Shown piece after piece: positions 16,946 through 57,859 of a stretch of DNA of 64,000 nucleotides (the stretch's first letter is position 1; every line of letters begins with the position of its first letter). The DNA comes from Rikenellaceae bacterium. GTDB taxonomy: Bacteria > Bacteroidota > Bacteroidia > Bacteroidales > Rikenellaceae. The stretch is taken from contig SUZC01000006.1 of NCBI GenBank assembly GCA_015060165.1, positions 49,744 to 113,743 on the forward strand. The letters run 5' to 3'. A program made the translations under genes and the position numbers. The notes beneath the pieces were generated by a model. It did no database searches, was not told where the DNA came from, and was given only the letters and a program-made list of their open reading frames with translations.

Positions 16946-16950
16946 ACAGA

Positions 16951-18590: not shown

Positions 18591-18632
18591 GCCACTGAGA
18601 AACAATTCGTTCAATCAGCAAATAGCAAAAAT

Positions 18633-19112
18633 ATGATAAGCATCATAGTAGCCGTCGCTCAAAACGGAGTAATCGGCGATAAGAATTCACTTCTCTGGCA
18701 TATATCTGAGGATATGCGCTTTTTCAAACGTACCACATCGGGACATCCCGTAATTATGGGACGCAAGACCTATGAGTCACTAGGTCGTCCACTGCCCAAT
18801 CGCACAAATGTAGTAATCAGCCGTACTCAATCGGAGATTGAGGGCTGCACAGTCGTAAATTCGTTGGAGCAAGCGATTGCTATTTTTCCCAACGAGGAGG
18901 AGGTATTTGTGATAGGTGGAGCGCAGATTTATGCTTTGGCACTCGACGTAGCCGATAGAATCTATTTGACACGCGTAGAGCACGACTACGAAGGCGACAC
19001 ATCGTTCCCCGCTTGGAACAGCGAGCAGTGGCAACTTATATCACGAGAAGCTCACGAATGCGGCGAGAAATACCCTCATCCATTTGCATTTGAGATTTAC
19101 GAAAGAAAATAA
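18633..19112 (+). CDS. folA: Dihydrofolate reductase
   Basis: 159 aa; IVAVAQNGVIG, LLWHISEDMRFFKRTT, GRKTYES, VIGGAQIY motifs. Confidence 0.95.
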   Translation: MISIIVAVAQNGVIGDKNSLLWHISEDMRFFKRTTSGHPVIMGRKTYESLGRPLPNRTNVVISRTQSEIEGCTVVNSLEQAIAIFPNEEEVFVIGGAQIYALALDVADRIYLTRVEHDYEGDTSFPAWNSEQWQLISREAHECGEKYPHPFAFEIYERK

Positions 19113-19145
19113 TATCACATACAAATCTATTAAACTACTAAAATA

Positions 19146-21179
19146 ATGAGACCTATTCATCTTTTAATTGCCGCAACAACACTCTTTGCGGTATCTGCCT
19201 CGGCGGCAAAGAAAGAGGAAAAACCTCAAGCAGTATTCAATAGAGCACCGCTCGTTGAAGTACCTTATGCCCAACTTCCGATCGGAGAGATCCAACCCGA
19301 AGGCTGGCTCAGAACACAGATGCAGACAATGATCGATGGAATGACAGGCAACCTCGACCAGATATATGAGTTTGTTGTCGGTGACAATAATGCTTGGCTC
19401 GGTGGCGAAGGTGACGCTTGGGAGCGTGGTCCATATTGGATTGATGGAGCGCTACCAATGGCATATATTATGGGCGATGAGGAGCTGAAAAAGAAATCTC
19501 TAAAGTGGGTAGAAGCTATATTGGCCAGCCAAAAGGAGAACGGATTCTTCGGTCCTGACACCGACCGCCCCTACATCGCAGGTATGCAGCGTGGCAACGC
19601 AGCAGATTGGTGGCCAAGAATGGTTGCACTGAAAATCTTGCAGCAATATTATATGGCTACAGGCGATAAGCGAGTTGTCGATTTTATGACTCGTTATTTC
19701 CACTATCAGCTCGAAACCCTACCTAAGACCCCACTCGGAAATTGGACATTCTGGGCTACGGAGCGAGGTGGTGACAACCTGCTCATAGTGCATTGGCTTT
19801 ACAACATTACCGGTGATGAGAAGTTGTTGAAGTTAGGCGAGATTATCCACTCGCAATCAGCAGATTGGACAGACCGCTTCACAACCAACAACCATCTATA
19901 TCGTCAAAATAGTATCCACTGTGTAAATCTCGGTCAGGGATTCAAAGAGCCCGTTATCAACTGGCAGCAGTCAAAGGACAACAAGCATCTTAATGCCCCA
20001 CTTGAGGCTTTGAAACGTATCCGTACAACTATCGGATTCCCAATCGGTTTGTGGGCAGGCGACGAGTATCTGCATTTTGGTAAACCGACTCGTGGTTCAG
20101 AGCTTTGTACTGCCGTTGAGATGATGTACTCTTTAGAGGAGATGTATCGAATTACAGGCGACAATACCTATGCTGACCTATTGGAACGAGTAGCGTACAA
20201 CGCATTGCCAACACAGATTACCGATGCCGGCGATGCACGCCAATATTATCAGCAGATAAATCAGGTGGAAGTGACACGCAAACCGCGCCACTTCTCTACT
20301 CCCCACGAAAATACAGACATTCTGTTCGGCACACTCACTGGTTATCCGTGCTGTACCTGCAACCTACACCAGGCTTGGCCAAAACTCACACAAAATCTTT
20401 GGTTGAAGAGCGTTGAAGGTGGCTTGGCTGCAATGGTATATGCACCTTCAAAAGTGTCGACTACCCTCCCATCGGGTGCAAAAGTTGAGATTCTGGAGCA
20501 GACGAACTACCCATTCGAGGAGCAGATTGCATTTACATTCTCTCTGCCCGAGCGCAAACATCGTTCGGCTGAGTTCCCACTCGATTTGCGTATTCCAGAG
20601 TGGAGCAATGGTTACACCCTTACAATCAATGGCGAGCAGGTTAAAGCTACCAATATCCGCAAGGGTACTATCCGCATTGCACGTACTTGGAATGATGGCG
20701 ACAAAGTGGTTTTGACACTCAACGCAACAGTCAAATCATCACGCTGGTACGACAATGCAGCTGTGATTGAGCGAGGTCCATTGGTATATGCTCTTCGTAT
20801 GGAGGAGAAGTGGGAGAAGCACATCTGCGAGGGTGCTGACAAGCAGAAGTATGGCGATTACTATTACGAAGTTACATCACCCACTCGTTGGAATGTAGCA
20901 CTCCGTGGCGGCGACTTGAAGGCTGAGAACATTGCCGCTAAGTTTGTGGTTGAGAAGAGTGAGTGCAGCGATAAACCTTGGTCGCTGGAGAGTGCACCTA
21001 TAAAGATTAAGGCTGAAGCTCACATCTTGCCTACTTGGACGATGGAGCATAACTCTGCAGGAGATTTCGCATATTACTCACAGCAACCACCAAAGGGTGA
21101 GGTTGGCGAGGTTGTAACTATTGAACTTATCCCTTATGGATGTACAACTCTTCGTATCGCAGAGTTCCCAGTTAGATAG
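19146..21179 (+). CDS. Secreted GH127/DUF1680-like beta-L-arabinofuranosidase family protein
   Basis: Signal peptide; Glu/Cys cluster SELCTAVEM and YPCCTCN resembling the GH127 Zn-Cys3-Glu site. Confidence 0.65.
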   Translation: MRPIHLLIAATTLFAVSASAAKKEEKPQAVFNRAPLVEVPYAQLPIGEIQPEGWLRTQMQTMIDGMTGNLDQIYEFVVGDNNAWLGGEGDAWERGPYWIDGALPMAYIMGDEELKKKSLKWVEAILASQKENGFFGPDTDRPYIAGMQRGNAADWWPRMVALKILQQYYMATGDKRVVDFMTRYFHYQLETLPKTPLGNWTFWATERGGDNLLIVHWLYNITGDEKLLKLGEIIHSQSADWTDRFTTNNHLYRQNSIHCVNLGQGFKEPVINWQQSKDNKHLNAPLEALKRIRTTIGFPIGLWAGDEYLHFGKPTRGSELCTAVEMMYSLEEMYRITGDNTYADLLERVAYNALPTQITDAGDARQYYQQINQVEVTRKPRHFSTPHENTDILFGTLTGYPCCTCNLHQAWPKLTQNLWLKSVEGGLAAMVYAPSKVSTTLPSGAKVEILEQTNYPFEEQIAFTFSLPERKHRSAEFPLDLRIPEWSNGYTLTINGEQVKATNIRKGTIRIARTWNDGDKVVLTLNATVKSSRWYDNAAVIERGPLVYALRMEEKWEKHICEGADKQKYGDYYYEVTSPTRWNVALRGGDLKAENIAAKFVVEKSECSDKPWSLESAPIKIKAEAHILPTWTMEHNSAGDFAYYSQQPPKGEVGEVVTIELIPYGCTTLRIAEFPVR

Positions 21180-43862: not shown

Positions 43863-43889
43863 ACAAAAGCCACTCTTGCGAGTGGCTTT
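43863..43889 (-). terminator. Orphan terminator, proposed ancestral terminator of tRNA-Arg
   Basis: 10-bp stem aaagccactc / gagtggcttt, TTTTG on minus strand, 20 nt downstream (minus sense) of the left 13-nt tRNA fragment. Confidence 0.6.
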
Positions 43890-43908
43890 CTTATTACGCA
43901 TTGCGCTC

Positions 43909-43921
43909 GTGATTCCGGCGG
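43909..43921. repeat. Left copy of 13-nt direct repeat gtgattccggcgg (att-like)
   Basis: Exact match to 57680..57692, which is the 3' acceptor/T-stem end of tRNA-Arg. Confidence 0.85.
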
Positions 43922-44188
43922 TGGAGGCGATGTTGCTTGTTAGTCTCAAACGCTCAAAGCGTTGTGCGATTTTCGTGGTATTCACTCACACCACACTCAC
44001 AAATAAATTCATATATTTTCTTACTCGGAAAGTACTGAAGATAATACATTGATATATAATAATATAAATATGTATGTTATACTATTCTTCTTGTGCTTTT
44101 TGTCTTGTTTATCGGTTTTAGTTCGTTTTGCTACTCAAAGATAGTAAAATTAGTGATAAACTAGGCATACTATCTGTTTTATTTAATT

Positions 44189-45457
44189 TCAAACCCTATC
44201 TACTCGTCTACATTTAAGAATTAATGGTTGTCCGTTACTGTTCTTTATTCCACTATTAATGGTAGTAATATTGCCTCGCTTGATAGGGTGATCTGAATAT
44301 GTAATAGCTGTTTTGTTATGTAAAGAAAAATGAGAATAAATAAATATTTCTTTAATGTAACAATCCAACAATAGCTGTAAGCGTTTTGCATCAAAATGCT
44401 TAAACGCGAGTAACTCCATACTTGTTGACTCTTTTAAATCATCAATAACCACTTTGATTTCCACATCCGCACAATTGCGAATCTCTATCATAAAACTATA
44501 TTTGGGATCTATTTTGCCACTTGTGCTAATCTTAACATTTTTTCTATCCCATACTTTATGTAATGTATCCCTTAAATTCGTAAAAATAATATTAAGTCCT
44601 GCTCTTTCCACAACATCTAAATCTTTCCACCAATCTTTAAACTCTAGCAATTCAAAAACTGGCAGATGCTTTAGGATATTGTACTCATTAATGTATTTAA
44701 TAAACTTACGTCCATAATAAGTAAGAGCATTGTATCTCAAAAAGAACAACTCTGTTTCCGTTAATTGAGCTCTAATGATTTTTAAATAATCTTTTTTAAT
44801 TTCCTCTGGGATTGTTTTAGCATTATCAATTAGGTCATATATGCGATACAATGTTCTATAATATGCACCTATTTTATCTTTATTTTTAATGTAGAAAAAC
44901 ATATATATTTTTAGTGCCTCTGCTTGATTCTGCTCAAAAGACTTTTTTGGAGTAAAAGACCTTTGAAGTTTCTCTTTTTCAAAGTCAAAGAAGTCTTTAT
45001 TGTTATAAGAATACTCTCGTACTTCATAGTTATTGTCTTCATTTGAATCAACATTCTGCGTTTTTGTCTCCGCAAATGTTTTATATACTCCGCACAATTC
45101 AGACACTTGACTTTGATACAAATGTAATAATTCAAAGAATAAATCATGAAAGCGCTCTATCTCAAGTTGCTGTTTGTTATCCGATGTTGCTGTTTGTTGA
45201 TGATTGAATGTTTTAATAACCAAGAGGACGCTTATTACTCCAAAAATGGTTCCTAAAACACCTCCGACGAAATCACCATATGTTCCCAATAGTGCATAAT
45301 CTGCTATATAGTCTGCTTTAAATGGTTTAATTATATGTCCCCATCCAAAAGCTATACCTGATAAAACGATAAAAACAAAGGAAAGCACAACATATGCCCA
45401 TCTAGACGATAATATTTTGTCTACAAATTGACTGATCTTACTAAAAATTGCCTTCAT
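44189..45457 (-). CDS. Putative abortive-infection protein, AbiC-like (putAbiC-type N-terminus)
   Basis: Two N-terminal TM helices with GTYGDFVGGVLGTIFGVISVLLVI then ERFHDLFFELLHLY, matching the recalled putAbiC pattern; rest unknown. Confidence 0.5.
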   Translation of the reverse strand: MKAIFSKISQFVDKILSSRWAYVVLSFVFIVLSGIAFGWGHIIKPFKADYIADYALLGTYGDFVGGVLGTIFGVISVLLVIKTFNHQQTATSDNKQQLEIERFHDLFFELLHLYQSQVSELCGVYKTFAETKTQNVDSNEDNNYEVREYSYNNKDFFDFEKEKLQRSFTPKKSFEQNQAEALKIYMFFYIKNKDKIGAYYRTLYRIYDLIDNAKTIPEEIKKDYLKIIRAQLTETELFFLRYNALTYYGRKFIKYINEYNILKHLPVFELLEFKDWWKDLDVVERAGLNIIFTNLRDTLHKVWDRKNVKISTSGKIDPKYSFMIEIRNCADVEIKVVIDDLKESTSMELLAFKHFDAKRLQLLLDCYIKEIFIYSHFSLHNKTAITYSDHPIKRGNITTINSGIKNSNGQPLILKCRRVDRV

Positions 45458-45608
45458 ATGGTTAGTAATTTAAGGAATAACATTTATAAATGTATAATGC
45501 CTCAATGTTCTTGTAAACATTTGATTATACAAAGACTACTACCACCGATCAATTATAAATCTTTTAACCAAACACTTTGGCAAGTCTCAACCTAAAGTTT
45601 TTGATATT

Positions 45609-46007
45609 TTACTGTTTTAATGCTCCCTCTACTGCTTGCTTTGCTGCGATTTTAGCTCCACCTCCAATAATCCTAAGTAACTTATAGCTTGCGAGCATGT
45701 TATTTAACGCTCCTGCTGCAACCAACAAACTATTTTGTAATTGTATAACAGACATACCCTCTACAATATTACTGGGGACAACAGTTAAAAAGCAATTGTG
45801 AGGTGTAAATTGAGTGAGGTCTGGATACTTGTTAGTTATATAACTATTACAAGTCTTCAACTCTTCTGCATTAGCACGCAATACAGCATTAAATATGTGC
45901 TGTAAATCCTCTCTGACTATGTCTTGTTGTTCTTTTACATCTTTAGCAACTTCAAAGGACTCCTTACAAGCATCTGCAAACAACTTTATTCTATCTTGAT
46001 TATCCAT
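45609..46007 (-). CDS. Hypothetical 132-aa protein (Gly/Ala-rich amphipathic C-terminus)
   Basis: Clean ORF 27 nt downstream of ATPase gene on same strand; no recognisable motif. Confidence 0.5.
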   Translation of the reverse strand: MDNQDRIKLFADACKESFEVAKDVKEQQDIVREDLQHIFNAVLRANAEELKTCNSYITNKYPDLTQFTPHNCFLTVVPSNIVEGMSVIQLQNSLLVAAGALNNMLASYKLLRIIGGGAKIAAKQAVEGALKQ

Positions 46008-46034
46008 ATTATAAAAGTATTAAAAACAATAAAC

Positions 46035-47360
46035 TTAATCTTTTAAGCATCCGAGTGGGATTACCTTCACGCCATCCTCACGAGTATATGCAAACTCTCC
46101 ACCGGTCAGCACAATCAACAGGTCTGGTTCACGGAGAGGCATCTGCTTCTCGGTTTTATTGCGCTCGCGGATCAGTTCTTGCAGTTGCAGAAGATGCTTT
46201 GCTCCCTCATCAATATCTCGGCTGCCCAACTTACACTCAATAAGTGCATATCGCTGGTCATCAAGATGAAGTACAATATCAGCCTCCAAGCCATATCTAT
46301 CATGATAGTAAGATACTCGACCTCCCATAGCTTGTGAATACACTCTTAAATCTCGAATACACATACACTCGAAGATAAAACCAAAGGTTTTCAAGTCTAG
46401 TTCAAGCGATTTTGGCGATGCTCCCATTGCTGCCACAGCGATAGATGGATCAATGAAGCATCTCTTCTTGCCAGAGCGAATAGCAGTTGCTGAGCGAATA
46501 GCCGGACACCACGCATCGATATCCTCAATCACAAATAGGCGTTTCAATGCATCAACATACTCATCAAAGGTTGCTTGCACAGTTGTCTCCATTTCAACCT
46601 TAACATCAGCAAGCATTGCCGTCTTCTTTGCCAAGGTGCATAGATTGCGAGCATAGGAACGCAAAATGAGTCTAGCAAGTTCAGGATTACGCTGAACTCC
46701 ATCGACTCGCGAAATATCATCTTCGCACACCTTATTGAGGTAATCTTTGGCAATAAGCAATTGTGCCCTTTCGCTTTTCACATTAAGCGAATCTGGCCAA
46801 CCGCCTCGACAAGCCAACATTATCAACTCCTCAATCGATAACTTTGATGTGATACCGTCAATGTCCAATGACCTGTTGTCAAATAACTCAAGGAAAGATA
46901 TTTCACCTGACGACTCTTTCGACTCATATAGGCTCATAGGATACATCGTCATAGTAGCAATTCTACCAGTACCTGTATGCATTTGCCTTTGCTCCTCGGG
47001 AGTATCCTCGTCGCCATTATTCTTTATTACGGTAGAGCCGGTAAGAATAAACTGACCTTTCAGCCCCCTTTGGTCAACGGCATTGCGTACAGCATCCCAC
47101 AAAATAGGTATATCCTGCCACTCATCAATCAGTCGAGGTGTTTCTCCCTTCAACAGAATTGAGGGCTTTGTTCTTGCAGTAGCCAAATAACCTTCGCGTT
47201 TATCAGGGTCCTGCAATTTGATAAAACTTTTGGCTTGTTGTTCCGCAGTAGTGGTCTTACCACACCATTTGGGTCCCGTTATTTGCACAGCCCCAAAAGC
47301 CTCCAACCGCAAAGCAAGTTCGTCGTCAGCTATTCTACTTAAATACTCCTTATCAGCCAT
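46035..47360 (-). CDS. AAA ATPase with C-terminal PD-(D/E)xK-like domain (AAA_14/DUF4143 type)
   Basis: Walker A GPKWCGKTT, Walker B-like RLIDEWQ, C-terminal EADIVL...YALIECKLG nuclease-like motif. Confidence 0.75.
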   Translation of the reverse strand: MADKEYLSRIADDELALRLEAFGAVQITGPKWCGKTTTAEQQAKSFIKLQDPDKREGYLATARTKPSILLKGETPRLIDEWQDIPILWDAVRNAVDQRGLKGQFILTGSTVIKNNGDEDTPEEQRQMHTGTGRIATMTMYPMSLYESKESSGEISFLELFDNRSLDIDGITSKLSIEELIMLACRGGWPDSLNVKSERAQLLIAKDYLNKVCEDDISRVDGVQRNPELARLILRSYARNLCTLAKKTAMLADVKVEMETTVQATFDEYVDALKRLFVIEDIDAWCPAIRSATAIRSGKKRCFIDPSIAVAAMGASPKSLELDLKTFGFIFECMCIRDLRVYSQAMGGRVSYYHDRYGLEADIVLHLDDQRYALIECKLGSRDIDEGAKHLLQLQELIRERNKTEKQMPLREPDLLIVLTGGEFAYTREDGVKVIPLGCLKD

Positions 47361-47388
47361 ATCATAATCTTTTTGTGCTTACTATTTG

Positions 47389-47396
47389 CAAATATA
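47389..47396 (-). promoter_or_regulatory. Bacteroides-type -7 box (TATATTTG) for ATPase gene
   Basis: TAnnTTTG 29 nt upstream of ATG 47360. Confidence 0.4.
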
Positions 47397-47446
47397 ATGA
47401 TTATTCTTTAGATGGCAATGGAAATTTACTTTTTTGTCGCATTTCA

Positions 47447-47492
47447 ACTTGCGTTTTTGTGGTCAAACAACTTGTATTTTTGTGGTCAAACA
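47447..47492. repeat. Tandem 23-bp direct repeat x2 (21/23 identical) with degenerate flanking copies
   Basis: acttgcgtttttgtggtcaaaca / acttgtatttttgtggtcaaaca; weaker copies at 47425..47446 and 47493..47515 share TTTTGT core. Confidence 0.85.
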
Positions 47493-47632
47493 TCTAGCAA
47501 TTTTGTGATACAGCCCTGCTTAACCTAAAATATATAGAAATAGATAATTGTATTATGGCGTTACAATAACTTTATTTTCTCGATTTATGGCGTTTGACAA
47601 AGACTGAATATCTTACTATGAATCCATCAATA

Positions 47633-47685
47633 ATTTCAAAGTGCCAAATCCAAAATTTCAAAGTGCCAAAATGGCACTTTGAAAT
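47633..47685. repeat. Three copies of 14-mer atttcaaagtgcca (two direct, one inverted) forming a perfect 14-bp hairpin
   Basis: Copies at 47633..47646, 47655..47668 and inverted 47672..47685; last two separated by 3 nt. Confidence 0.9.
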
Positions 47686-47703
47686 AATAAATCTTAAAGT
47701 CCG

Positions 47704-47733
47704 CAACTCGTGAGCGCTCACGAGTTGTTTTTT
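47704..47733 (+). terminator. Plus-strand intrinsic terminator with no annotated gene upstream
   Basis: Perfect palindrome caactcgtgagc/gctcacgagttg followed by TTTTTT. Confidence 0.65.
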
Positions 47734-48175
47734 ACCCTTCGAAGTGGTTAGCCACACTAACCAGTTCGGTAAAACAGTCAGTTGATTAGTTTCACTAACC
47801 GACTGCAAATATTATCAAGTTGACTACAGATTGTAGTCATCTACACTTTCCCAAATAGAAAGTAAACCAATACCCTAATGAGCAATAGCGCCTCAAACAA
47901 GGACATCATTATTTATCCACTTTTTAACGCAATTTTCTATGAAATTTTACTATCTTTGTACTTGGATTAGGGCACCGAGTAGGAAAACTGAGAAGTGTGC
48001 ATTTGCTGTAAAAGCAAGGCGCAATTATCCGCCCTATTTCAGTCTAAAATTGTAACCGGCTAATAATCAGCATACTCTTTGTGCTTCATCGGAAGATGCG
48101 GGGATAATACATTGACATAAAACTACATATATATGTTGTCCGAGAAAGTATGGTGCAAGGATCAAAAATGTAATA

Positions 48176-49849
48176 TTACATTTCATGCCAACGCATTTCT
48201 CCATTTGCATAATCAATCTCTTGGCGTAATGTGTGAATTCCTTCCAATGTTAAGAATTCAGAATCCTCTGCCAACTTTAATTCACCCTTTGCGTTTCGCC
48301 TTTGCAAACTGCGTATAAGAAAACATGCTTTTTTTGCCCTCGTGATACCAACATAATGTAGGTCTAAATCCTGCTCCATATTGATATATTCTTGTTGGTG
48401 AAAGTCATTGTTTACTATACGCTTCGAAGGCAATTCCCATTCGCACACATTCAAATGAAATACAATATCAAATTCCAAACCTTTGGATTTATGTAGAGTC
48501 ATTAATTGTACTTCATTCGCATTCATAGGTTTATATGAATTCAAATCATCGTCATTAGATAAAACGGTCTTTAATTTAGAAATAGAAGAACCATCGTCTA
48601 CTTTTGGAAGAAGTATATCTGCAATCCTCTTGAAAGTATCTGGCAGTATTTCATAATTTCCATCAAATGATCGGACCTCTTGACCTGCATTATAAAGGCA
48701 TTTTTTTTCATGATTTGTGAGAGTGTTATAATCAACAAACTCATCGACAACACTCATAAATGGCATTGAATCATCAAAATAATATCTTAACAGATAAGTG
48801 AATAATCGAGATCTCGAATTTAGATCTTCATCAAGTTCTGTAGTCTTTACAATACGATGTGGAATTGATAGATGCTCATCTATTATTGTTTGAGTCCTGA
48901 TGTTTTTGACAAGTATTGCAACCTTGCAATTTTCCGTAACGTTCCATTTGTTGCATATACTATTAAGTTTATTATTAATAAATTCAGCAATTGATTCTTC
49001 GGCACCTTGTACTCTAATTAGGAACATTGAGTTGTCCTCAGTTTCAAGTATCTCAGAGTTTGGGTCCAATAAGCGATTAGAATAATTGATAATGGATGGC
49101 GCACACCGAAAATTTTCATTAAGAGTAAACGATTTAAATTGTGGGTTATCCCTTAATGAACGTATGTATTTATTATCTTTATGAGCAAATCCAAAAATCG
49201 ATTGATTGTCATCGCCAACTGCAATACCAACCAGCCCCATATTTACAAGATCTAAAAATATATCATTTGTATATGTATCGGCATCCTGAAACTCATCTAT
49301 AAAAATATATTTAAAGCGAGCTTTGAGGTAATTTCTACATGCTTGACAGTTTCTTATAATATGAAGAGCTAACAACTCCAAACTTTCAACAAGAATGCGC
49401 CCTTGTGAAAACAATGAAACGATTGATTCTAGTTGGGCTGGTTGTATGTTAATATAATCGGGATGTTCGGACGTTATCCACTTATAAGGCTCTGAACCTT
49501 CTTCACCAAGATCTTTTAGACTAGTTATTTCCAACCTCTTACTTGGACGCCCAAAAATGAAATTTCCGAAATATTCAATAATTTGCGTAAGACAAAAGTT
49601 GTCGATTGTACCAAAAAATGAATTTTTCTGTTGAATATCTCCGCTTGTTGTGCGGCTTTTAAGGTTGGAAGATGCCTTTCTGGTATAGGATATGGCAATC
49701 ACACCCTGATATGAACGCATTTCATCTTTTTGGATAATGCGTTTTATCATTTCAGAGATAACAAAAGTCTTTCCGCTACCAGGAGAAGCTAATACCACCG
49801 TATTACCTTCATGGTTAATAATAGCTTTCTGAATCTCAGTAGGCTCCAT
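48176..49849 (-). CDS. gajB: Gabija GajB, UvrD/Rep-family helicase
   Basis: Walker A ASPGSGKTF, FIDEFQD, HKSKGLEF, VGITRAK motifs; 14-nt overlap with upstream OLD-family gene. Confidence 0.85.
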   Translation of the reverse strand: MEPTEIQKAIINHEGNTVVLASPGSGKTFVISEMIKRIIQKDEMRSYQGVIAISYTRKASSNLKSRTTSGDIQQKNSFFGTIDNFCLTQIIEYFGNFIFGRPSKRLEITSLKDLGEEGSEPYKWITSEHPDYINIQPAQLESIVSLFSQGRILVESLELLALHIIRNCQACRNYLKARFKYIFIDEFQDADTYTNDIFLDLVNMGLVGIAVGDDNQSIFGFAHKDNKYIRSLRDNPQFKSFTLNENFRCAPSIINYSNRLLDPNSEILETEDNSMFLIRVQGAEESIAEFINNKLNSICNKWNVTENCKVAILVKNIRTQTIIDEHLSIPHRIVKTTELDEDLNSRSRLFTYLLRYYFDDSMPFMSVVDEFVDYNTLTNHEKKCLYNAGQEVRSFDGNYEILPDTFKRIADILLPKVDDGSSISKLKTVLSNDDDLNSYKPMNANEVQLMTLHKSKGLEFDIVFHLNVCEWELPSKRIVNNDFHQQEYINMEQDLDLHYVGITRAKKACFLIRSLQRRNAKGELKLAEDSEFLTLEGIHTLRQEIDYANGEMRWHEM

Positions 49850-51602
49850 ACATTGATTCGATATATTCTTTAGCTTTCTGAATCGGGAGACTAATCCTAT
49901 CTTTCTCCAGCGAAGTCAGACATGCTTTATGTTTCTTAAGAAACTCATACATATTTACCGCTTTGTGCTCTTTCATTTTGCAAATAATCTGATCTGCGGT
50001 TAGTTCATTTCCATAGTGCTCTTTCAAGTTTTGATTGATAGGACTATTGTATAAGTCTTCTTCCAATCCTTGTTGCGCAATCAGAATGTTATATTTCTCA
50101 AGTATAGCAATTAAGCTAGATGCGGCTGACGAAACATTTGCTGGAATATGTTCCTTATCCGCAAGGTCATGAATCAGTTCTTTATTTTGATCTATAACCA
50201 ATTTGTCCGCTTGATCTATTGTTTGTAAATCTAGATATGAAATTCCTCTTTCGATACCAGCATATCTATATTTATTTTTGTTAGCTATTTTAACGATATC
50301 ATTATCTGTGCGCAAAATCCATTTGATATTCATGGCATTTAAGATCTTAATATAAGTTGAGAATCCAACACCATCAACACTCATTACAGATATATTCAGC
50401 CTATCTAAATCAATGTTTAATTGCTTTGCTAAAGTATTGTATAGTATCATCTCTGATGGACCTTCAACAAGGATAACACAATCTGAAAAGAATGTTTCTG
50501 CAGGTATTACGCTCATGCGATACCCAAAGTCCTCAAAGTTCTCAGCAATGATTGTTGAACATCCATCTGATGCCACAAGTGTGTCATTACAATTTCGCTT
50601 GTAAAGGCGAATCATAGAATTGGGGCTAAATTCACAAACAATAAAAGGAGAGTGTGTGGTTAAGATGACTTGTTCCGATAATGTTTGTCCCAAATATATC
50701 GCTAGTTCCCGTTGCTGGTGTGGATGTAGATAAACTTCTGGCTCCTCGATAACAATTATTGAAACTTCATTTGATATATTCGTATTCTTGTTTCTGGAAG
50801 CCCATAATGAAAGATATATTTGATTTATTCGGCCCTCACCGCCGACAAGCATTCTTTTTTCTCCAAATTTAGACACTATGGATACATTTGATATGACTTT
50901 ATCCACATCTGAGGATGCAATATCAAATACAATCTGTTGCTCCCTATTGTGAATAGAGAGCTTATCTAATTCTACATTTATTTGCTCTGTTGCATTTTTA
51001 ATGTAGGATAACTTTGGAACTCTTTCATCAACCTCCCTTAACTTTGACACTATTTCTGCGTACAATCTATCATCCGCTTCAACAACCTCTTCATCTCTAT
51101 CCTCTTTAGCTTGCAATAGTAGCTCATTCTTGGATTTATTAATATATCCCCAGAATTCTCTTCTACTACCTATATATTTCAAGTTAAGATATTTTCTATA
51201 ATATGGGCTGTCTATTTCGACCAGATCATCTGTTGAGTCACTTTTGCCGCAATAGAATTTATAACTTAGCTTTCCGTCTTTGATATTAGCTTGATATTCT
51301 ATAACCAACTCTCCATCATCACTCAGTCTTCCCCCCATTCTTGCAACAACGCATTCTTCTGTAATGTCAGACAAGTATGCCCTAATAATAATGGATTTGG
51401 TGTCTTCATATGCATAAAAGTCAGAATCCATAAGTTCGTAATCATAGTCAGAGAGACTCCTATCTAAAAGGATTCTAAGAGCGTATATTAAATTTGTTTT
51501 ACCAACATCATTTGCTCCAAATATTAGACTATGTTTATTAAAATTCACAGTAACTTCTTTGAAGTTACGAAACCCCTTAATGTAGACCTTATTCAAAATC
51601 AT
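49836..51602 (-). CDS. gajA: Gabija GajA, class 2 OLD-family ATPase/TOPRIM nuclease
   Basis: Walker A GANDVGKTN, VIEEPEVYLHPHQQ, TOPRIM ILVEGPSE and TDNDIV motifs; 588 aa. Confidence 0.85.
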   Translation of the reverse strand: MILNKVYIKGFRNFKEVTVNFNKHSLIFGANDVGKTNLIYALRILLDRSLSDYDYELMDSDFYAYEDTKSIIIRAYLSDITEECVVARMGGRLSDDGELVIEYQANIKDGKLSYKFYCGKSDSTDDLVEIDSPYYRKYLNLKYIGSRREFWGYINKSKNELLLQAKEDRDEEVVEADDRLYAEIVSKLREVDERVPKLSYIKNATEQINVELDKLSIHNREQQIVFDIASSDVDKVISNVSIVSKFGEKRMLVGGEGRINQIYLSLWASRNKNTNISNEVSIIVIEEPEVYLHPHQQRELAIYLGQTLSEQVILTTHSPFIVCEFSPNSMIRLYKRNCNDTLVASDGCSTIIAENFEDFGYRMSVIPAETFFSDCVILVEGPSEMILYNTLAKQLNIDLDRLNISVMSVDGVGFSTYIKILNAMNIKWILRTDNDIVKIANKNKYRYAGIERGISYLDLQTIDQADKLVIDQNKELIHDLADKEHIPANVSSAASSLIAILEKYNILIAQQGLEEDLYNSPINQNLKEHYGNELTADQIICKMKEHKAVNMYEFLKKHKACLTSLEKDRISLPIQKAKEYIESMYGAY

Positions 51603-51618
51603 AAAAACGGATGGGTAT

Positions 51619-52272
51619 TTAGTGGTTATTTACAGAATTCACGAGATCGAACTTTATCAATTGCCAAACTTTACCCTGCAGACAGGTTGGATCTGGTTCT
51701 GTATCGGCCAATGTAAAGTTCGTTAATCCTGCAGTACACTCTTCTTTTGTTGCTCCATATGGATAACGCTCCTCATATAGAGACAGCATCTGCTCTATGG
51801 TGTATTTATCACGCAACATATGCAAATCCCAGAAGTCCTTCTTGCGACCACCACGCGACACCACATCCATCTTCATCGCAACAATATCTTCTACTGCTGC
51901 CATACGGATTGTGTCAAATTGTTCTTGTGGACGAATAAATGGGTCGGTATAAAACAAGTCAAGCTTTACGAAGTCATCCTTAGAATTGCCAACCATATAC
52001 GATGTTCCGAAGCCTACAATATCGCCGCAGTCGCCCTGACAATAAGGGAACTCCCTACGAAGAATCTCCTGCAATCGGCGAAAATCCAACGAACCATATT
52101 CTGCATCAGTAAATAGGTCTATATCATCAGACATACGATGACCATAGCGTAACGACAACGAAGTACCACCGACTAATCGAAATGGTTTAAATTCGTCTAT
52201 CTCCATCAATCGCTCCAAAGTGGAACGCAAAATTGGTTTGACGGTTTGGTATTGCAGTTCTTTACGCTTCAT
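51619..52272 (-). CDS. Nucleotidyltransferase AbiEii/AbiGii-family toxin
   Basis: GGTSLSLRYGHRMSDDIDLF motif typical of AbiEii NTases; 11-nt overlap with upstream HTH gene. Confidence 0.8.
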   Translation of the reverse strand: MKRKELQYQTVKPILRSTLERLMEIDEFKPFRLVGGTSLSLRYGHRMSDDIDLFTDAEYGSLDFRRLQEILRREFPYCQGDCGDIVGFGTSYMVGNSKDDFVKLDLFYTDPFIRPQEQFDTIRMAAVEDIVAMKMDVVSRGGRKKDFWDLHMLRDKYTIEQMLSLYEERYPYGATKEECTAGLTNFTLADTEPDPTCLQGKVWQLIKFDLVNSVNNH

Positions 52273-52783
52273 AACAAAGATACTGTTTTATGTTTGCCTT
52301 AATATTGTTTTCAAATGGAGACTTCGTTTTTAAATTGATGTTATCCAATATGACATCACGACCATAGAAACGGATAACCTCCTGTATCTCCTCCTCATTT
52401 CCTCGCTCAAACACACGATTGATTACATATCTGCTATGTGCTGTAAAGTCAATATTTTCAATCTTTGTATCCCAGAATAGAGTTTTGCGAAACTTTGTAA
52501 GGTCAGGGTGATGATTAGCTGATTGTTTACGCTTCTCCTCTGCAATGTCGTAGTATACCTGTAAGGTCATTAAGAATCCTTCCTCCAAACCGAGAGCCTG
52601 CTCTATACGAAGGGATAGAGGTGTATTCATTGACCTACGCCCACGAATAATAGCACTCAAAGTCTGTGGATGCTCACCAATTGACTCGGCAAACTGCCCA
52701 CTTTTGAGTTTTCTATTACCCAACTCTCGCTGCAAAAAAAGACCTGGGTGCAACCCCTTAAGTATTTCAATCATCCTATTCAT
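52262..52783 (-). CDS. HigA/XRE-type HTH antitoxin-like protein with C-terminal DUF6922-like domain
   Basis: N-terminal HPGLFLQRELGNRKL...QFAESIGEHPQTLSAIIRGRR HTH; C-terminal LFWDTK...INRVFERG...FYG pattern. Confidence 0.65.
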   Translation of the reverse strand: MNRMIEILKGLHPGLFLQRELGNRKLKSGQFAESIGEHPQTLSAIIRGRRSMNTPLSLRIEQALGLEEGFLMTLQVYYDIAEEKRKQSANHHPDLTKFRKTLFWDTKIENIDFTAHSRYVINRVFERGNEEEIQEVIRFYGRDVILDNINLKTKSPFENNIKANIKQYLCYEA

Positions 52784-52844
52784 ACCGCAAAAATAAACAT
52801 TTTTGTTTATAAAACCAAATTGCGAGCCAAAAAGTATTGATACC

Positions 52845-52879
52845 CTGCGAAAGTTGAATTTATTTTCAGACTTTCGCAG
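52845..52879 (-). terminator. Possible terminator after metallophosphoesterase pair
   Basis: Perfect 10-bp stem ctgcgaaagt / actttcgcag; T5 only 12 nt further on minus strand, so weak. Confidence 0.4.
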
Positions 52880-52905
52880 AGTATCGAGGCATATAGACTA
52901 CACCT

Positions 52906-53661
52906 CTATAAACTTCCCGCCGTCAAAACCACCGAGGTTTCTCGGTAGTAAACATAGCCGAGTTGGTTGCAGACAATGCGGGTATTGCCGATTGTTGCAT
53001 CTATGTTGGCGTGCGAGTGTCCGAAAATCCACGCATCGATACGGCTGTCGGCAATAAAGTCGCCCAACTCCGTTGCGAAGGCACTATTCAGCAAGTTGCC
53101 CTTATGTTCTGGAGCAACGACTGCCATTGTAGGCAGATGATGGGTTACCACCACGATACGCTCGGCAGTGCTTTCCGCAACACTCCGCTTGATAAAGTCC
53201 AGACATTTCTCGTGCTCGGCGTTAAAGTCAGCAGGAGTAAAGCGCCGACCATTGTACAGAATCTGCCGAAAGTCATTCATTCCTCGATGCACAAAATACT
53301 CATCCTCGGGGCGAATGTGCGACCAAAGAGTTGAGAGGATAAAATCGACATCATCAATCCTCACAACCTTATTCTGGTGGTAATGCACATTTGGCAGTAT
53401 CTTACGACTCCAACTATCGCCATAGGCTAACACATCGCCATTGCCATAAAACTCGTGGTTACCGGGCACCAACAACACCTCTCGGTAGTTTGCCGAAGCC
53501 CACTTCCAGAATCTCAGATTTGGCAATGACCTATCGCGCAGGTAACCTGTATCACCCGCAAAGACCAATACATCGCCAGTAACCTCAAACGGCATACTCT
53601 TTATAAATCTCGAATTATCCGACAACTCCAAATGGATGTCAGATGCAAATTGTATTTTCAT
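52906..53661 (-). CDS. Metallophosphoesterase (calcineurin-like), 251 aa
   Basis: SDIHLE, AGDTG, PGNHE, VTHH, FGHSH motif series. Confidence 0.85.
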   Translation of the reverse strand: MKIQFASDIHLELSDNSRFIKSMPFEVTGDVLVFAGDTGYLRDRSLPNLRFWKWASANYREVLLVPGNHEFYGNGDVLAYGDSWSRKILPNVHYHQNKVVRIDDVDFILSTLWSHIRPEDEYFVHRGMNDFRQILYNGRRFTPADFNAEHEKCLDFIKRSVAESTAERIVVVTHHLPTMAVVAPEHKGNLLNSAFATELGDFIADSRIDAWIFGHSHANIDATIGNTRIVCNQLGYVYYRETSVVLTAGSL

Positions 53662-53675
53662 AAAACTTATCCTCC

Positions 53676-54254
53676 TTATCTTTTACTCTGTTCTACTTGC
53701 TTTTCTATTATTCGCCTTACCTGTTCAAATGAGACAGGTGTAAAGTTGTTATTATCCACTCCAACATCATATTGTGTCGGGAATAGCATATGTAGTCGAG
53801 GCGCATCTATACCGGTGTTTTGCTTGCTGGTATGCACATGACCGAATAGCTGCCAAGTATCTCGATATGCCCCACCATAGCACAAGAATGGGCAGTGGTT
53901 GAGATATATCTTCTGCTTGCCTACCTCAATATGCATCTGCATCGCTATATGCTCAAAACGACTATAATATCCTTGCCTCAAATTCTTGATGTCGTGGTTG
54001 CCGACAATCAGGTAAATCTTACCATTAAGCCTATTAAGGATATTAGTCCATTCCGCCGAGCCTCCTAGGCAGAAGTCGCCGAGATGAAATACAATATCGT
54101 CAGGACCGACTACGCTATTCCAGTTGGCTATGAGCGTTTCGTTCATAACCTCCACATTCTTAAATGGCCTACCACAGAAGTTGATAATATTGGCGTGGTA
54201 GAAGTGAGTGTCGGATGTAAAGAACACCCTATCTCCATCAAATTTGTAATTCAT
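53676..54254 (-). CDS. Metallophosphoesterase (calcineurin-like), 192 aa
   Basis: SDTHFYH, LGDF, VGNHD, NHCP, FGHVH motif series; 14 nt upstream of second MPE gene. Confidence 0.85.
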   Translation of the reverse strand: MNYKFDGDRVFFTSDTHFYHANIINFCGRPFKNVEVMNETLIANWNSVVGPDDIVFHLGDFCLGGSAEWTNILNRLNGKIYLIVGNHDIKNLRQGYYSRFEHIAMQMHIEVGKQKIYLNHCPFLCYGGAYRDTWQLFGHVHTSKQNTGIDAPRLHMLFPTQYDVGVDNNNFTPVSFEQVRRIIEKQVEQSKR

Positions 54255-54351
54255 AATTTCATTGTTTACCGCATCACTGCGTTGTTAATAATAAAGTTTG
54301 TTATTGCCATTGGACGGAATAGATGGAGAGGTTAAGCATCACCAATGGGTA

Positions 54352-54392
54352 TAAACAAAAATCGTTGAAAAGTGAGGAACTTTCCAACGATT
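54352..54392 (-). terminator. Minus-strand intrinsic terminator upstream of MPE cassette
   Basis: 14-bp stem (one mismatch) aatcgttgaaaagt / actttccaacgatt then TTTTGTTT on minus strand. Confidence 0.65.
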
Positions 54393-54427
54393 CTTATCTA
54401 TTCTCATAACTCGGATATCTGCATCTA

Positions 54428-54586
54428 TTATATCCGTGTTCGAGTATGTTTCAGTTGGATAGTATTCCCGATAGAATCTGCGGTTTCAACGCTTGGAATA
54501 GGCGCACACAGAACACCTTCAAAGCGTTTTACGCCCTGAACTCGACCAATAGTCGTAAGCAATATGTGCATTCTATTCTGCTGCAT
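54428..54586 (-). CDS. Small 52-aa ORF with its own promoter-like box and terminator
   Basis: MQQNRMHILLTTIGRVQG...; TATCTTTG box at 54619..54626 on minus strand, terminator at 54352..54392; no family recognised. Confidence 0.3.
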   Translation of the reverse strand: MQQNRMHILLTTIGRVQGVKRFEGVLCAPIPSVETADSIGNTIQLKHTRTRI

Positions 54587-55110
54587 TTTAGTTTCTGTTT
54601 TATCCCATATCGGGAGTGCAAAGATAGTGATTTGATACGCTACTTCCAAAGATTTTGCACTTTAATCTTCTGGTAATTAGGCTATATACTAAAGTATATA
54701 TTGTTGTAGCAAATTGTTATTCAAGAGTAGAGGGTATGTTCGGCTGATTTAGGGCATATGATGCCGCCTCGAAAGTATAACTTCGCATTTTACAGCTAAT
54801 TGCGACATCGATTTATCGAAACCAATAAGGAAACCTAAAAAAAATATTGCCCTCCAGCATCATTCTCGCCACGAACATTGTACCCCTAACGGGGGTACAT
54901 CTTGTTTGTTTGCAAAATCCTTCATAACTTCGCCGTTGCAATGTGGAAGGATTTGGACTGATTGCAGCCACAATAAAAGATAGCCAAAACAGCACGGCCG
55001 CGGGATATATCCCCAAGTGTTATCAACCCATAAATTGGAACTAACAAATCTGTAGCCAGCGTTCAGCGCGTTTGGCATAGGGATAACAGCCCCTAACAAT
55101 AACTAAAACT

Positions 55111-55902
55111 ATGAAACAGAATTTAGAGTTTATAGCACAACTAAACATTATTGCAATTGTATCCAAAGCAATACGCATCATAGATAAATGTTACAAGGAT
55201 GAATGTGAGAAGCGTAATCATGCAAAGGATAGAGAGCTGTTAGATTATACTCCGTTTCCAGAAGAGTGCAACTACGACGAGTTTTACACGATTGTAGAAC
55301 TAAGGCGAGTCGCTTCACCTTTAATAGTTGCCGATATGATAAGTGCTTATTATATGGACTCGTCATATGACAACACCTATTTGCTCAAACTATTAACCAA
55401 AAAGCTTGACCTTGAATTTGACACAGAGAGTGAGTATCGGTATTATAGGAGATTCGTTGATGACCACGACTTTAATATGCCTGGAACGTTTGATGTTGAA
55501 TGTTTTATTAAACATATGCCAATCTTGCGTAAACGCATTGAACTTACTTTTGGTGTGGACATTTACGCCATTAACAAGCCAAGCCAAAGCGTATCAAGTC
55601 GCTTAATCGCCCAGTGTTACTTACGCAAAGTATATGACTATGTCTGCGATGATGCTTTTAAGGGGATTTCATTTAAAGAGTTTGAAAGATGTGTTGTTGA
55701 GAGGAACTTTTCAAAGATTTACAACTCAGAATACGCAAAGGCTTCAATGATTAAGTATCTTATTTACGTTCTGAGTAAACATATAGATAGTGAATCTTGG
55801 TATAGAGATACCGCCCACAGCATTAATACAGAGCCGCAGAAATGCAGTGGCGCATCAGTGCCCAAACAATGGCGAAGGGAGTTAAACGCCATTAAAGCGT
55901 AA
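55111..55902 (+). CDS. Hypothetical 263-aa protein
   Basis: Clean ORF with ATG; Tyr/Asp/Cys-rich, no motif recognised. Confidence 0.5.
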   Translation: MKQNLEFIAQLNIIAIVSKAIRIIDKCYKDECEKRNHAKDRELLDYTPFPEECNYDEFYTIVELRRVASPLIVADMISAYYMDSSYDNTYLLKLLTKKLDLEFDTESEYRYYRRFVDDHDFNMPGTFDVECFIKHMPILRKRIELTFGVDIYAINKPSQSVSSRLIAQCYLRKVYDYVCDDAFKGISFKEFERCVVERNFSKIYNSEYAKASMIKYLIYVLSKHIDSESWYRDTAHSINTEPQKCSGASVPKQWRRELNAIKA

Positions 55903-55956
55903 GTCACCTCATGCCTTCTACACATTATCCATCAGCGCATTACCTTTTTTTCGGTT

Positions 55957-56469
55957 GTGCGCTGTTTCTTTGTGGCACATTGCCCTAGCGCCCGCCTGCG
56001 CTTTGCCTCGTATGACCCCAACCCGTATATCAACCGAGAGCCAACGCCCCACACTCTGCCGGAGTGCGTAACCTCAACGGCCAACAGCGACACAAAAGAG
56101 GCGATTTCACAGCCTCAACAAGTGCAAGCCGACCAAGTACCCCACCGAGCGGAGAAAAACGAAAATAGAGCCATAACAGCAAACCACCCGACCACATTAG
56201 CAATCGAGCATATCGAGCGAGCTGTGCAGGAACTTGTAGAGCGTGGCCTCAACATCGCAGAGGAACACTACGACTGGGTGCGTATAGGTTTTGCATTGGC
56301 CTCAACATACGGAGAGCAGGCAAGGCCACTATATCACGCTATATCGACACAATCGAGCAAATACAAGCGTAACGAGTGTGACGCTCAGTTTACCCATTGC
56401 CTACGCTCTAAGGGTATCAGTATTGGCACATTTTTAGATTACCTCAAACGGGTAGGTGTAAGATGGTAA
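55957..56469 (+). pseudogene. PriCT-2-like primase C-terminal domain fragment (remnant of mobile-element primase/helicase)
   Basis: EHYDWVRIGFALAS...GEQARPLYHAISTQSSKY...ECDAQF resembles PriCT-2; GTG start only, no internal Met, no helicase part. Confidence 0.45.
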
Positions 56470-56730
56470 GTTTACGAAAGTGGGACATATCAAAGAGGTA
56501 GGGGGGTCAAAAGTTTAACGCTTTTGCCCCGCAAACCTCGCCCCCAGCACAGTAAACACACACGAAACTTTTTTCAAAAACGCCGACTTTGTATTTTGCT
56601 TACAATTTGTAAGTAATCGGCCTGCGACCTATCTTCGATATGGCAAATTATTACCATATAATAGCAGAGAAACACCTATTTTACACCTAAAAACGGGCAT
56701 AAAACAGTACAAAACGGCTATAAAACGCAC

Positions 56731-56770
56731 AAAAAAACGGGGTTTTACACAGCAAAAACCCCGTTTTATG
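56731..56770. terminator. Strong bidirectional hairpin (13-bp stem) in island right arm
   Basis: aaaacggggtttt / aaaaccccgtttt with flanking A and T runs. Confidence 0.55.
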
Positions 56771-57041
56771 TATATATTTTATGTATATAATGACGTAATT
56801 GTTGAGGTCACACCTCAAAATATCGTGGTTGCGTATAACTCTGGTAATTTTGATTTCTACCGCTCTATGTAGCTATTTACTAACCGCATCGCCCTTTCGT
56901 TGAGGGGGCGTGTTTTTTATTTTGCATACCCCCTATGATACCCGACACCCTCAATCCCTTTGTAACACTCACGCAGTTTTTTCAAAAAAGTGATTTTTAC
57001 CGAGCCGGTCGAAGTGCCCCGCCTACCTCAACATCAACGCA

Positions 57042-57518
57042 CTATTCTTTGATTTCGGCGCAGTTGCTCAACCGTCTAACAAAACTATCCACCGCCTGCA
57101 ACAAATCGCCCATACAGCGCAATAAATTAGCTCTATCGGCCTCATCTTTGGGAGTGATACGGTAACACTCACGCAGTACCGCCAATACCTCAGCGGGATT
57201 CTCGTTTGGCTCACGCTCGATACGACACCCGCTATCTATATCGTGCAATACTTGTTTATAGTCAAAATCCATCTTCTGCAACTGGGTGAGGTAGTCGATG
57301 GCCGAAAAGCGCATTAGTATCTCTGCCATATCCTCGTAATGGCTACGAACTGCACAAACGGCATAATGGGGGAGCGTTGAAGTGTCGAGGGTTGAAGAAA
57401 TAGATTTTTTAGCCATTGTGTTGGCATTTCCGGCCTCGATAGGAGCATTGGTTTTGTTTGAATTGGGGATAACTTCAACCGTTGAGATAAAACCGTTAGA
57501 ATTTGTTGTGTTTTTCAT
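57042..57518 (-). CDS. Hypothetical 158-aa protein adjacent to tRNA end of island
   Basis: Clean ORF, no recognisable motif; sits where an integrase would normally be. Confidence 0.45.
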   Translation of the reverse strand: MKNTTNSNGFISTVEVIPNSNKTNAPIEAGNANTMAKKSISSTLDTSTLPHYAVCAVRSHYEDMAEILMRFSAIDYLTQLQKMDFDYKQVLHDIDSGCRIEREPNENPAEVLAVLRECYRITPKDEADRANLLRCMGDLLQAVDSFVRRLSNCAEIKE

Positions 57519-57631
57519 TGTAACAATATTTTTGGGGTTAATAACTGCGAAATATCAGTGTTACAACGCTATAAAAAAATCGACTACCCGCAAATCGAAA
57601 AAGAGTTTTGTTTGCACATTGTTTGTACATT

Positions 57632-57676
57632 AAAAAACAAATCAGCCACCTACATCGCTGTAAATGGCTGATTTTT
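57632..57676 (-). terminator. Current (island-borne) terminator of tRNA-Arg
   Basis: 10-bp stem aaatcagcca / tggctgattt followed on minus strand by TTTTTT, starts 5 nt after tRNA 3' end. Confidence 0.7.
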
Positions 57677-57679
57677 AAG

Positions 57680-57692
57680 GTGATTCCGGCGG
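57680..57692. repeat. Right copy of 13-nt direct repeat gtgattccggcgg (inside tRNA-Arg 3' end)
   Basis: Exact match to 43909..43921. Confidence 0.85.
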
Positions 57693-57754
57693 GATTCGAA
57701 CCCACGACCCACAGCTTAGAAGGCTGTTGCTCTATCCAACTGAGCTACGGAACC
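57681..57754 (-). tRNA. tRNA-Arg (anticodon TCT)
   Basis: Minus-strand GGTTCCGTAGCTCAGTTGGATAGAGCAACAGCCTTCTAAGCTGTGGGTCGTGGGTTCGAATCCCGCCGGAATCA folds as cloverleaf; anticodon loop CTTCTAA. Confidence 0.9.
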
Positions 57755-57784
57755 ATCAACAACGCCATTGCGGCATTTGCGATG

Positions 57785-57792
57785 CAAAAATA
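57785..57792 (-). promoter_or_regulatory. Bacteroides-type -7 box (TATTTTTG) for tRNA-Arg
   Basis: TAnnTTTG 31 nt upstream of tRNA 5' end on minus strand. Confidence 0.4.
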
Positions 57793-57859
57793 AATCATTT
57801 ATTTCTTTTATCCAAAATTAATCGTGATTTCACGACTAGTTTTGCATTTATCATCAAGA

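Follow-up and report, generated by a model that had tools for sequence, protein, structure and literature searches.

The 64-kb window analysed here (64,000 nucleotides from a Rikenellaceae bacterium, contig SUZC01000006.1, assembly GCA_015060165.1) carries a 13.8 kb island in the 3′ end of a tRNA-Arg(TCT) gene, and this island is very probably the immobilised product of successive insertions into that tRNA end combined with one internal deletion. It had been described from the letters alone as one repeat-bounded element, either decayed or mobilised in trans. The insertion and its 13-nt bounding repeat stand, but judged by sequence comparison the island is a mosaic whose DNA has three or more sources: the tRNA-proximal remnant of a ~6 kb integrative element which we refer to as A-type (55989–57679), a terminal fragment of a second kind of element, B-type (54770–55995), and an AT-rich block of cargo (43922–54769). 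Of the two fates proposed, decay is the one upheld, as intact A-type elements with an integrase of their own occupy the same tRNA and the island keeps only 1.7 kb of such an element. We regard it as a decayed, probably immobile island akin to a cis-mobilisable element (CIME).

The 13.8 kb block can be shown to be a precise insertion at the tRNA-Arg core. The 13-mer GTGATTCCGGCGG occurs on the + strand of the window in two exact copies (Table 1), the proximal one lying in the 3′ end of the tRNA as placed by ARAGORN and as the preliminary description had it, and no third site exists in the window with up to one mismatch allowed (0.04 expected in shuffled sequence). A chance repeat was rejected on this expectation and on the exact empty site described below. 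The proximal copy takes in 4 nt of the T-stem and all 7 nt of the acceptor strand, then the discriminator A and a single C, the tRNA end having been duplicated as a direct repeat and the 3′ end of the gene rebuilt by the island. The insert measures 13,771 bp with one repeat copy, or 13,784 bp if both copies are counted. Its GC content is 38.4% (43922–57679) and only 35.5% at 44–52 kb, against 46.0% in the left and 48.4% in the right flank, so the AT-rich interior noticed earlier is real although the flanks are not at the ~50% first estimated.

Empty and occupied sites were sought among contigs encoding an identical HisIE, the gene beside tRNA-Arg, and both states were found, both being common in the species. 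The preliminary description had predicted an empty site in which tRNA-Arg is directly followed by the hairpin at 43863–43889, and exactly this arrangement is present in the conspecific metagenome contigs L001 and L003, where the his operon, an identical tRNA-Arg, the hairpin and a GH28 gene follow one another. The junction reads ...TTATTACGCATTGCGCTC / GTGATTCCGGCGG / GATTCGAACC..., that is, the left flank of the window (ending GCGCTC), a single 13-mer and the tRNA, with flanks sharing 97.3–98.1% identity with the window. Five further contigs (L002, L004, L006, L026 and L027) carry the occupied site, and over the island as well as its flanks they match the window at 99.9–100%. Samples with the island include JGI 3300022601, 3300024268 and 3300019376.

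The tRNA-proximal 1.7 kb of the island belongs to the A-type, of which the 8.8 kb metagenome contig L019 holds an intact copy. Reading away from tRNA-Arg, L019 encodes ORF143, a 55-aa open reading frame (ORF), a 368-aa primase (BT4734-like_N + PriCT_2), a DUF6291 protein, a 106-aa ORF, an HTH_17 excisionase-like protein, a 287-aa protein and a 408-aa tyrosine integrase (Arm-DNA-bind_5, Phage_int_SAM_5 and Phage_integrase domains), past which lie TTTGCA[CT]ACAA repeats, an exact 49-nt copy of the 3′ part of the tRNA, and then the native hairpin flank that the window has at the left of the island (91% identity over 68 nt). Window and L019 share ~95% nucleotide identity over 55989–57459 and 96% over 57608–57820; the match stops sharply at 55989, and left of this point the window has no DNA homology to L019 or to L012, a metagenome-assembled genome (MAG) labelled Alistipes sp. 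from water-buffalo rectum which has the same A-type layout. The remnant begins as an A-type element should, with a hairpin terminator past the tRNA followed by an ORF158-family gene at ~95% DNA identity to L019. The hairpin and its T-run are conserved in all A-type copies in an alignment of nine proximal ends, and take the place of the native tRNA-Arg terminator, now displaced to the far side of the island. ORF158 itself is 96% identical to its homologue in L019, and its homologues are always the first gene past the tRNA (L012, L018–L024 and L010). It has no match in Pfam, NCBIfam or PHROG, and its structure model was too poor for a structure search (predicted local distance difference test, pLDDT, 59).

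Of the remaining A-type backbone, the full primase, DUF6291, HTH_17, 287-aa and integrase genes are all gone, and only primase residues 210–368 are left. The PriCT_2 primase had been called truncated, correctly: residues 12–170 of the 170-aa window ORF align with residues 210–368 of the L019 primase at 92% identity, the N-terminal 209 codons including the BT4734-like_N catalytic domain are absent, and the annotated start, a GTG at 55957, lies in unrelated sequence. A homologue search with this fragment returned a single match.

The A-type also occurs well beyond this lineage. In L018, L020 and L024 the element likewise starts directly after the his operon and tRNA-Arg, and in L012, the only member of the genome collection with the ORF158 family, it does so beside a his operon only 79% identical to that of the window. 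Comparison of A-type copies gives 95–97% DNA identity against 86% for the his operons, and 93% identity between the L012 and L019 integrases; the elements are far more alike than their hosts, and the family is therefore horizontally mobile. In contig L010 (9601–10468), which ends before the rest of the element, tRNA-Gly(CCC) is immediately followed by an ORF158 homologue of 49% identity, so that the ORF158-led family seems not to be confined to a single tRNA target. L012 also shows a tandem array at tRNA-Arg (16549–20288), in which a 50-nt tRNA repeat after the A-type element is followed directly by a second element; this one starts with another tyrosine integrase and goes on to a Rad52-like gene and a DnaB_C/BT4734_N/PriCT_2 primase-helicase.

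The adjoining segment is the end of a different element. B-type elements (L015–L017) carry ORF259, an HTH_17 protein, an AAA_25 ATPase and a Zn_ribbon_16/DUF6371 protein, then Fic, HsdM and a 410-aa integrase. Window positions 54770–54812 are 88% identical to the boundary between element and host in L015 and L017, and tblastx homology to the B-type continues through ORF263 to 55995. Exactly where the B-type stops and the A-type starts, inside the primase gene, stands an octamer, CGCCCGCC, that is common to both parents. This abutment of two elements at an 8-nt microhomology in mid-gene points to a single illegitimate deletion which removed the recombination modules.

Some further observations concern ORF263. 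Its structure model reached a pLDDT of 66 and gave no Foldseek match in the PDB below E = 3. A 79-aa ORF, considered as a relative of a 73-aa ORF in L015, proved unrelated. ORF263 clusters at 97–98% identity (P0016–P0018) have 340, 93 and 102 members, with the longest contigs only 1.1–1.4 kb, and the gene seems to be abundant and often at assembly breaks. In contig L014 (1–1412, P0028), the reading frame of ORF263 residues 137–241, at 96% DNA identity to the window, continues into the catalytic C-terminal half of a tyrosine recombinase, a half that is 35% identical to the L015 B-type integrase. Either another B-type element has here undergone an internal deletion or the assembly is chimeric and, as a metagenome contig of only 1.4 kb may well be the latter, we do not rely on it.

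The ends of the island differ from those of a working A-type element. Intact elements are bounded by a 49–50-nt tRNA repeat and have two TTTGCA[CT]ACAA arm repeats on the tRNA side and four on the integrase side (L019, L012). At the proximal end, where eight other copies keep TTGCACACAATTTGCA[TC]ACAACTTTCCGGA, the window has ATGTACAAACAATGTGCAAACAAAACTC, so that its two arm repeats differ by 5 changes in 22 nt, and the following 148 nt up to ORF158 are unrelated sequence. This stretch (57460–57607) comprises the leader and first codons of ORF158, which are unlike those of the ORF143 genes in intact elements and give ORF158 a 15-residue N-terminal extension also found in P0002; it reflects either a separate subtype of the A-type or sequence replaced locally beside the arm repeats. 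At the distal end only 13 nt of tRNA identity remain, 36 of the 49 nt of the A-type repeat being gone, and the distal arm has no blastn or tblastx match in L012 or L019 and no arm repeats in motif searches. The 13-mer is no more than the overlap of the tRNA with an unrelated distal arm, and the island is therefore a mosaic and not one element.

A tyrosine or serine recombinase, whose absence had been pointed out earlier, is indeed lacking. None was found with Pfam among island ORFs of at least 50 aa, nor among the genes called in the rest of the 64-kb window on the contigs covering it. For 54255–57700 the ORF list went down to 30 aa; of these the larger ones alone were compared with Pfam and NCBIfam, and none matched. 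A hidden integrase was accordingly rejected for the island and window ORFs scanned. The island has no cognate integrase for its site, such as the intact relatives L019 and L012 each encode.

All occurrences of the composite share one chromosomal setting. The exact ORF263 protein was followed through 23 contigs, a limited sample read from 48 indexed sample blocks, and 23/23 show the his/tRNA-Arg context, with no other context for the composite. Island-bearing contigs are near-clonal and empty-site contigs ~2% divergent. The pattern fits one acquisition followed by vertical inheritance, and nothing in it suggests that the island recently excised or re-integrated. Nine positions distinguish L004 from the window, all within 53979–54568 and mostly in the non-coding DNA that separates the phosphoesterase genes from the B-type terminus; outside this stretch the two agree fully over ~3.1 kb of island sequence and 6.3 kb of flanking sequence, a case of local variation on a clonal background. 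L027 breaks off at window position 52529, inside the HTH_3/DUF6922 gene, and was reported with ten similar contigs as one shared context. If those ten also break at 52529, co-existing strains may differ in the cargo left of it.

The following history would account for these observations. Cargo, B-type and A-type DNA would have come to lie side by side at tRNA-Arg, and one microhomology-mediated deletion, running from just past ORF263 in the B-type to about codon 210 of the A-type primase, would have removed the rest of the B-type element, any internal attachment (att) site, the A-type DUF6291, excisionase, 287-aa and integrase genes, and the integrase-side arm. The distal 13-nt junction would be older and could have arisen in two ways. 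Either a separate element with a 13-nt tRNA overlap integrated first, bringing the cargo and making the distal junction, in which case one later illegitimate event would suffice, or the distal junction is itself a second illegitimate breakpoint inside the 49-nt repeat of the A-type. The tRNA-Arg stays intact, terminated by the hairpin the element brought, and the cargo would now pass on by vertical descent, as a defence island that is specific to the strain and fixed in place.

Several points weigh against this account. B-type elements elsewhere follow a sensor-kinase gene, which is not a tRNA site, and the position of B-type DNA between cargo and A-type is left unexplained. The cargo and distal arm (43922–54769) were not traced to a source, no relative with that arm having been found, and because of this we can only infer in what order events ran and that the ancestor was a tandem array. 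The deletion also gains no positive support from internal tRNA-like scars, though it predicts none: a scan for 16-mers within three mismatches of the 49-nt tRNA segment found only one isolated 16-mer. The sequence at 54757–54769 (ATGATGCCGCCTC), just outside the B-type terminus, was considered as a decayed att site, as it matches 8/13 core positions in the expected orientation, and was rejected as not significant (chance ~0.05 with positional slack by our own estimate, not a tool result). The arm-repeat variant of the window could mark a functional subtype rather than decay, and we infer immobility from population data on a limited contig sample.

The most serious competitor, which we nevertheless consider unlikely, is that the island is still active as a cis-mobilisable passenger, excised and re-integrated by the integrase of an incoming A-type element, as could happen once the two stand in tandem at this tRNA. 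In its favour, the two 13-nt cores are perfect, the A-type circulates among hosts as judged by the identities given above, tandem occupation of tRNA-Arg is seen in L012, accretion of CIMEs with integrative and conjugative elements (ICEs), as well as their co-transfer, is documented in other bacteria (PMC5704250), and presence and absence of the island are both common in the species. Excision would yield a circle with the predicted junction ...GGCTGATTTTTAAG-GTGATTCCGGCGG-TGGAGGCGATG... (also written GGCTGATTTTTAAG-GTGATTCCGGCGG-TGGAGGCGATGTTGC); no such junction sequence turned up in the collections searched, which lack this island. Set against this, the island occurs in one chromosomal context in one near-clonal lineage while empty sites belong to lineages ~2% apart, the integrase-side arm, three TTTGCACACAA repeats included, has gone together with 36/49 nt of tRNA identity, the proximal arm repeats carry five changes in 22 nt whereas eight other copies keep these repeats conserved, and the cognate integrase is absent from the 64-kb window. 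Mobilisation in trans has no support. That the composite is a working passenger, its perfect cores and retained A-type proximal end perhaps letting A-type elements, which move between species of the same gut communities and stack at this tRNA, dock beside it and carry the 11-kb cargo along, is marginally less likely again; were it true, a 6-kb element family would be a shuttle for defence islands in ruminant-gut Bacteroidales.

A single degraded tRNA-Arg element with a 13-nt core, all of whose cargo was its own and which lost only its integrase, would explain why one perfect repeat pair bounds the block with no att scar inside it. It is already contradicted by the present results and very improbable, the three segments having separate relatives, the A-type repeat being 49 nt with a different distal arm, 54770–55995 matching the terminus of a non-tRNA element, and B- and A-type being joined in mid-gene at a microhomology. 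Equally little credence attaches to the reverse polarity, in which the island is ancestral in the species and empty sites arose by precise loss, through recombination between the 13-mers or through excision by the integrase before decay. The empty site is the exact product of recombination across the 13-mers, and polarity cannot be read from two states, but the distant relative L019 has the same tRNA-hairpin flank with a different occupant, an intact A-type element, which suggests that the ancestral site was empty or had varying occupants, and the low GC content of the cargo marks it as foreign. This alternative alters the history of the island and not its nature. Stacked insertion at tRNA-Arg followed by a deletion remains our preferred reading.

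The cargo (Table 1) consists mostly of defence or toxin-antitoxin genes, as proposed earlier and as PADLOC and Pfam bear out. It includes a Gabija system with adjacent, full-length gajA and gajB genes overlapping by 14 nt, and an AbiEii-domain gene whose upstream overlapping partner is an HTH_3 + DUF6922 gene and not a canonical AbiEi; the HTH_3 + DUF6922 protein is presumed to be the antitoxin or regulator of AbiEii. ORF132, considered as a relative of a 132-aa ORF beside the B-type integrase, is unrelated. The whole island has no megablast match in plasmids and phages, the distal arm, ORF158 and ORF263 families have none in viral contigs, and neither a distal-arm 24-mer nor the ORF158 family was matched in the metagenome collection, which evidently lacks these samples. 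The 815 bp gap between gajB and the DUF4143 gene contains a 22-nt tandem duplication (47626–47669), a perfect 14-nt palindrome pair (ATTTCAAAGTGCCA/TGGCACTTTGAAAT, 47655–47685) and a second strong hairpin (47703–47728), which together look like back-to-back terminators or an operator. The block of AbiC-like, ORF132 and DUF4143 genes is bracketed by a 34-nt direct repeat of 82% identity (44040–44073 and 48103–48136) and by a perfect 16-nt inverted repeat (44136–44151 and 47943–47958), which may mark a cassette boundary within the cargo.

Table 1. Features of the tRNA-Arg(TCT) island and its borders, in window coordinates.
Feature	Position	Strand	Basis or remark
Native hairpin, chromosomal flank outside the island	43863–43890	.	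directly after tRNA-Arg at the empty site
Distal 13-nt repeat copy, displaced original tRNA 3′ end	43909–43921	+	exact match
Distal arm	43922–44188	.	unrelated to A-type integrase-side arm; without arm-repeat cluster
AbiC-like putative abortive-infection protein	44189–45457	-	Pfam putAbiC 1.2e-18
ORF132, no family match	45609–46007	-	Pfam, PADLOC, NCBIfam, PHROGs all negative
AAA_14 + DUF4143 ATPase, candidate defence family PDC-S01	46035–47360	-	Pfam, PADLOC
GajB, UvrD-like helicase	48176–49849	-	PADLOC 2.8e-179, full length; Pfam
GajA, OLD-type ATPase + TOPRIM nuclease	49836–51602	-	PADLOC 1e-198, full length; Pfam
AbiEii-family nucleotidyltransferase toxin	51619–52272	-	Pfam PF08843 6.6e-19; PADLOC AbiEii
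HTH_3 + DUF6922 protein	52262–52783	-	Pfam; overlaps AbiEii gene, same orientation
Calcineurin-like phosphoesterase, 251 aa	52906–53661	-	Pfam, PADLOC; weakly similar to candidate defence family PDC-S10
Calcineurin-like phosphoesterase, 192 aa	53676–54254	-	Pfam Metallophos
B-type terminal fragment (end sequence + ORF263)	54770–55995	+	homology to L015, L017
ORF263, no family match	55111–55902	+	47%-identical homologue leads B-type element
A-type primase, C-terminal 159 codons (PriCT_2 part)	55989–56469	+	Pfam; L019 alignment
B/A junction, 8-nt microhomology CGCCCGCC	55989–55996	.	local alignments of window to L015 (B) and L019 (A)
ORF158, conserved first A-type gene, intact	57042–57518	-	homologues P0002–P0015
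Diverged A-type arm repeats TGTGCAAACAA and TGTACAAACAA	57608–57630	-	compared with TTTGCA[CT]ACAA twice in intact elements
Element-supplied hairpin + T-run just past tRNA 3′ end	57639–57674	-	terminator scan, inverted repeat, 9-end alignment
tRNA-Arg(TCT), integration target	57679–57754	-	ARAGORN; identical tRNA in empty-site contigs
Proximal 13-nt repeat copy, tRNA-Arg 3′ end	57680–57692	+	exact match

Annotators should record the locus as a degraded integrative element or a defence island, and treat the 170-aa "primase" as a fragment of a pseudogene. The ~6-kb A-type family of ruminant-gut Bacteroidales, with its integrase, excisionase-like protein and primase, is undescribed but conventional. 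Integration in the manner of the non-replicating Bacteroides units (NBUs), as the preliminary description suggested, holds as an analogy only: like NBU1 and NBU2, the intact A-type relatives place a Bacteroidota-type tyrosine integrase at a tRNA 3′ end and have primase-like and excisionase-like backbone genes, but neither the island nor the intact A-type element has a detectable relaxase (MobN-type) or oriT module (no relaxase domain by Pfam in the island ORFs or the eight L019 ORFs), the target is tRNA-Arg(TCT), the A-type repeat is 49 nt and the island has no integrase, so membership of the NBUs fails. Defence hotspots of P4-like satellites and of satellites resembling phage-inducible chromosomal islands (PICIs) combine a small backbone of int, xis/alpA and primase at a tRNA gene with anti-phage cargo. 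By analogy the A-type may be likened to these in its int/xis/primase backbone at a tRNA and its association with anti-phage cargo; it differs in that no capsid-hijacking or packaging genes were seen, and its integrase found only a 42%-identical match in viral contigs.

Closer parallels exist for the way the island may have grown. In Prochlorococcus, with its tRNA-adjacent islands, tycheposons are small elements with a tyrosine recombinase, an excisionase and a primase, which integrate and stack in tandem at tRNA genes with partial tRNAs between them and whose decay leaves cargo-rich islands (bioRxiv 10.1101/2020.12.28.424599). Growth by tandem integration and decay is common to both, whereas the phylum is another, the proteins are unrelated, and no partial tRNA or integrase fragment lies inside the present island. 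CIMEs, and a model of accretion and decay for tRNA-site islands, are known from ICESt1/CIME in Streptococcus (reviewed in PMC5704250). The island fits this model and matches the definition of a CIME in having lost, by Pfam scans of its ORFs, integration and transfer genes; it also has perfect att cores at a tRNA 3′ end and shares its site with functional related elements, sometimes in tandem (L012). It differs in retaining only a 13-nt core distally, one parental arm being lost and the other diverged, in having ends that derive from different elements, and in that its mobilisation is unsupported. The island is a familiar kind of genomic island, the remnant of ordinary integrating elements, which leaves current ideas unchallenged and offers an example of defence-island formation, in which a tRNA landing pad gathers elements until one microhomology deletion freezes the cargo in place.

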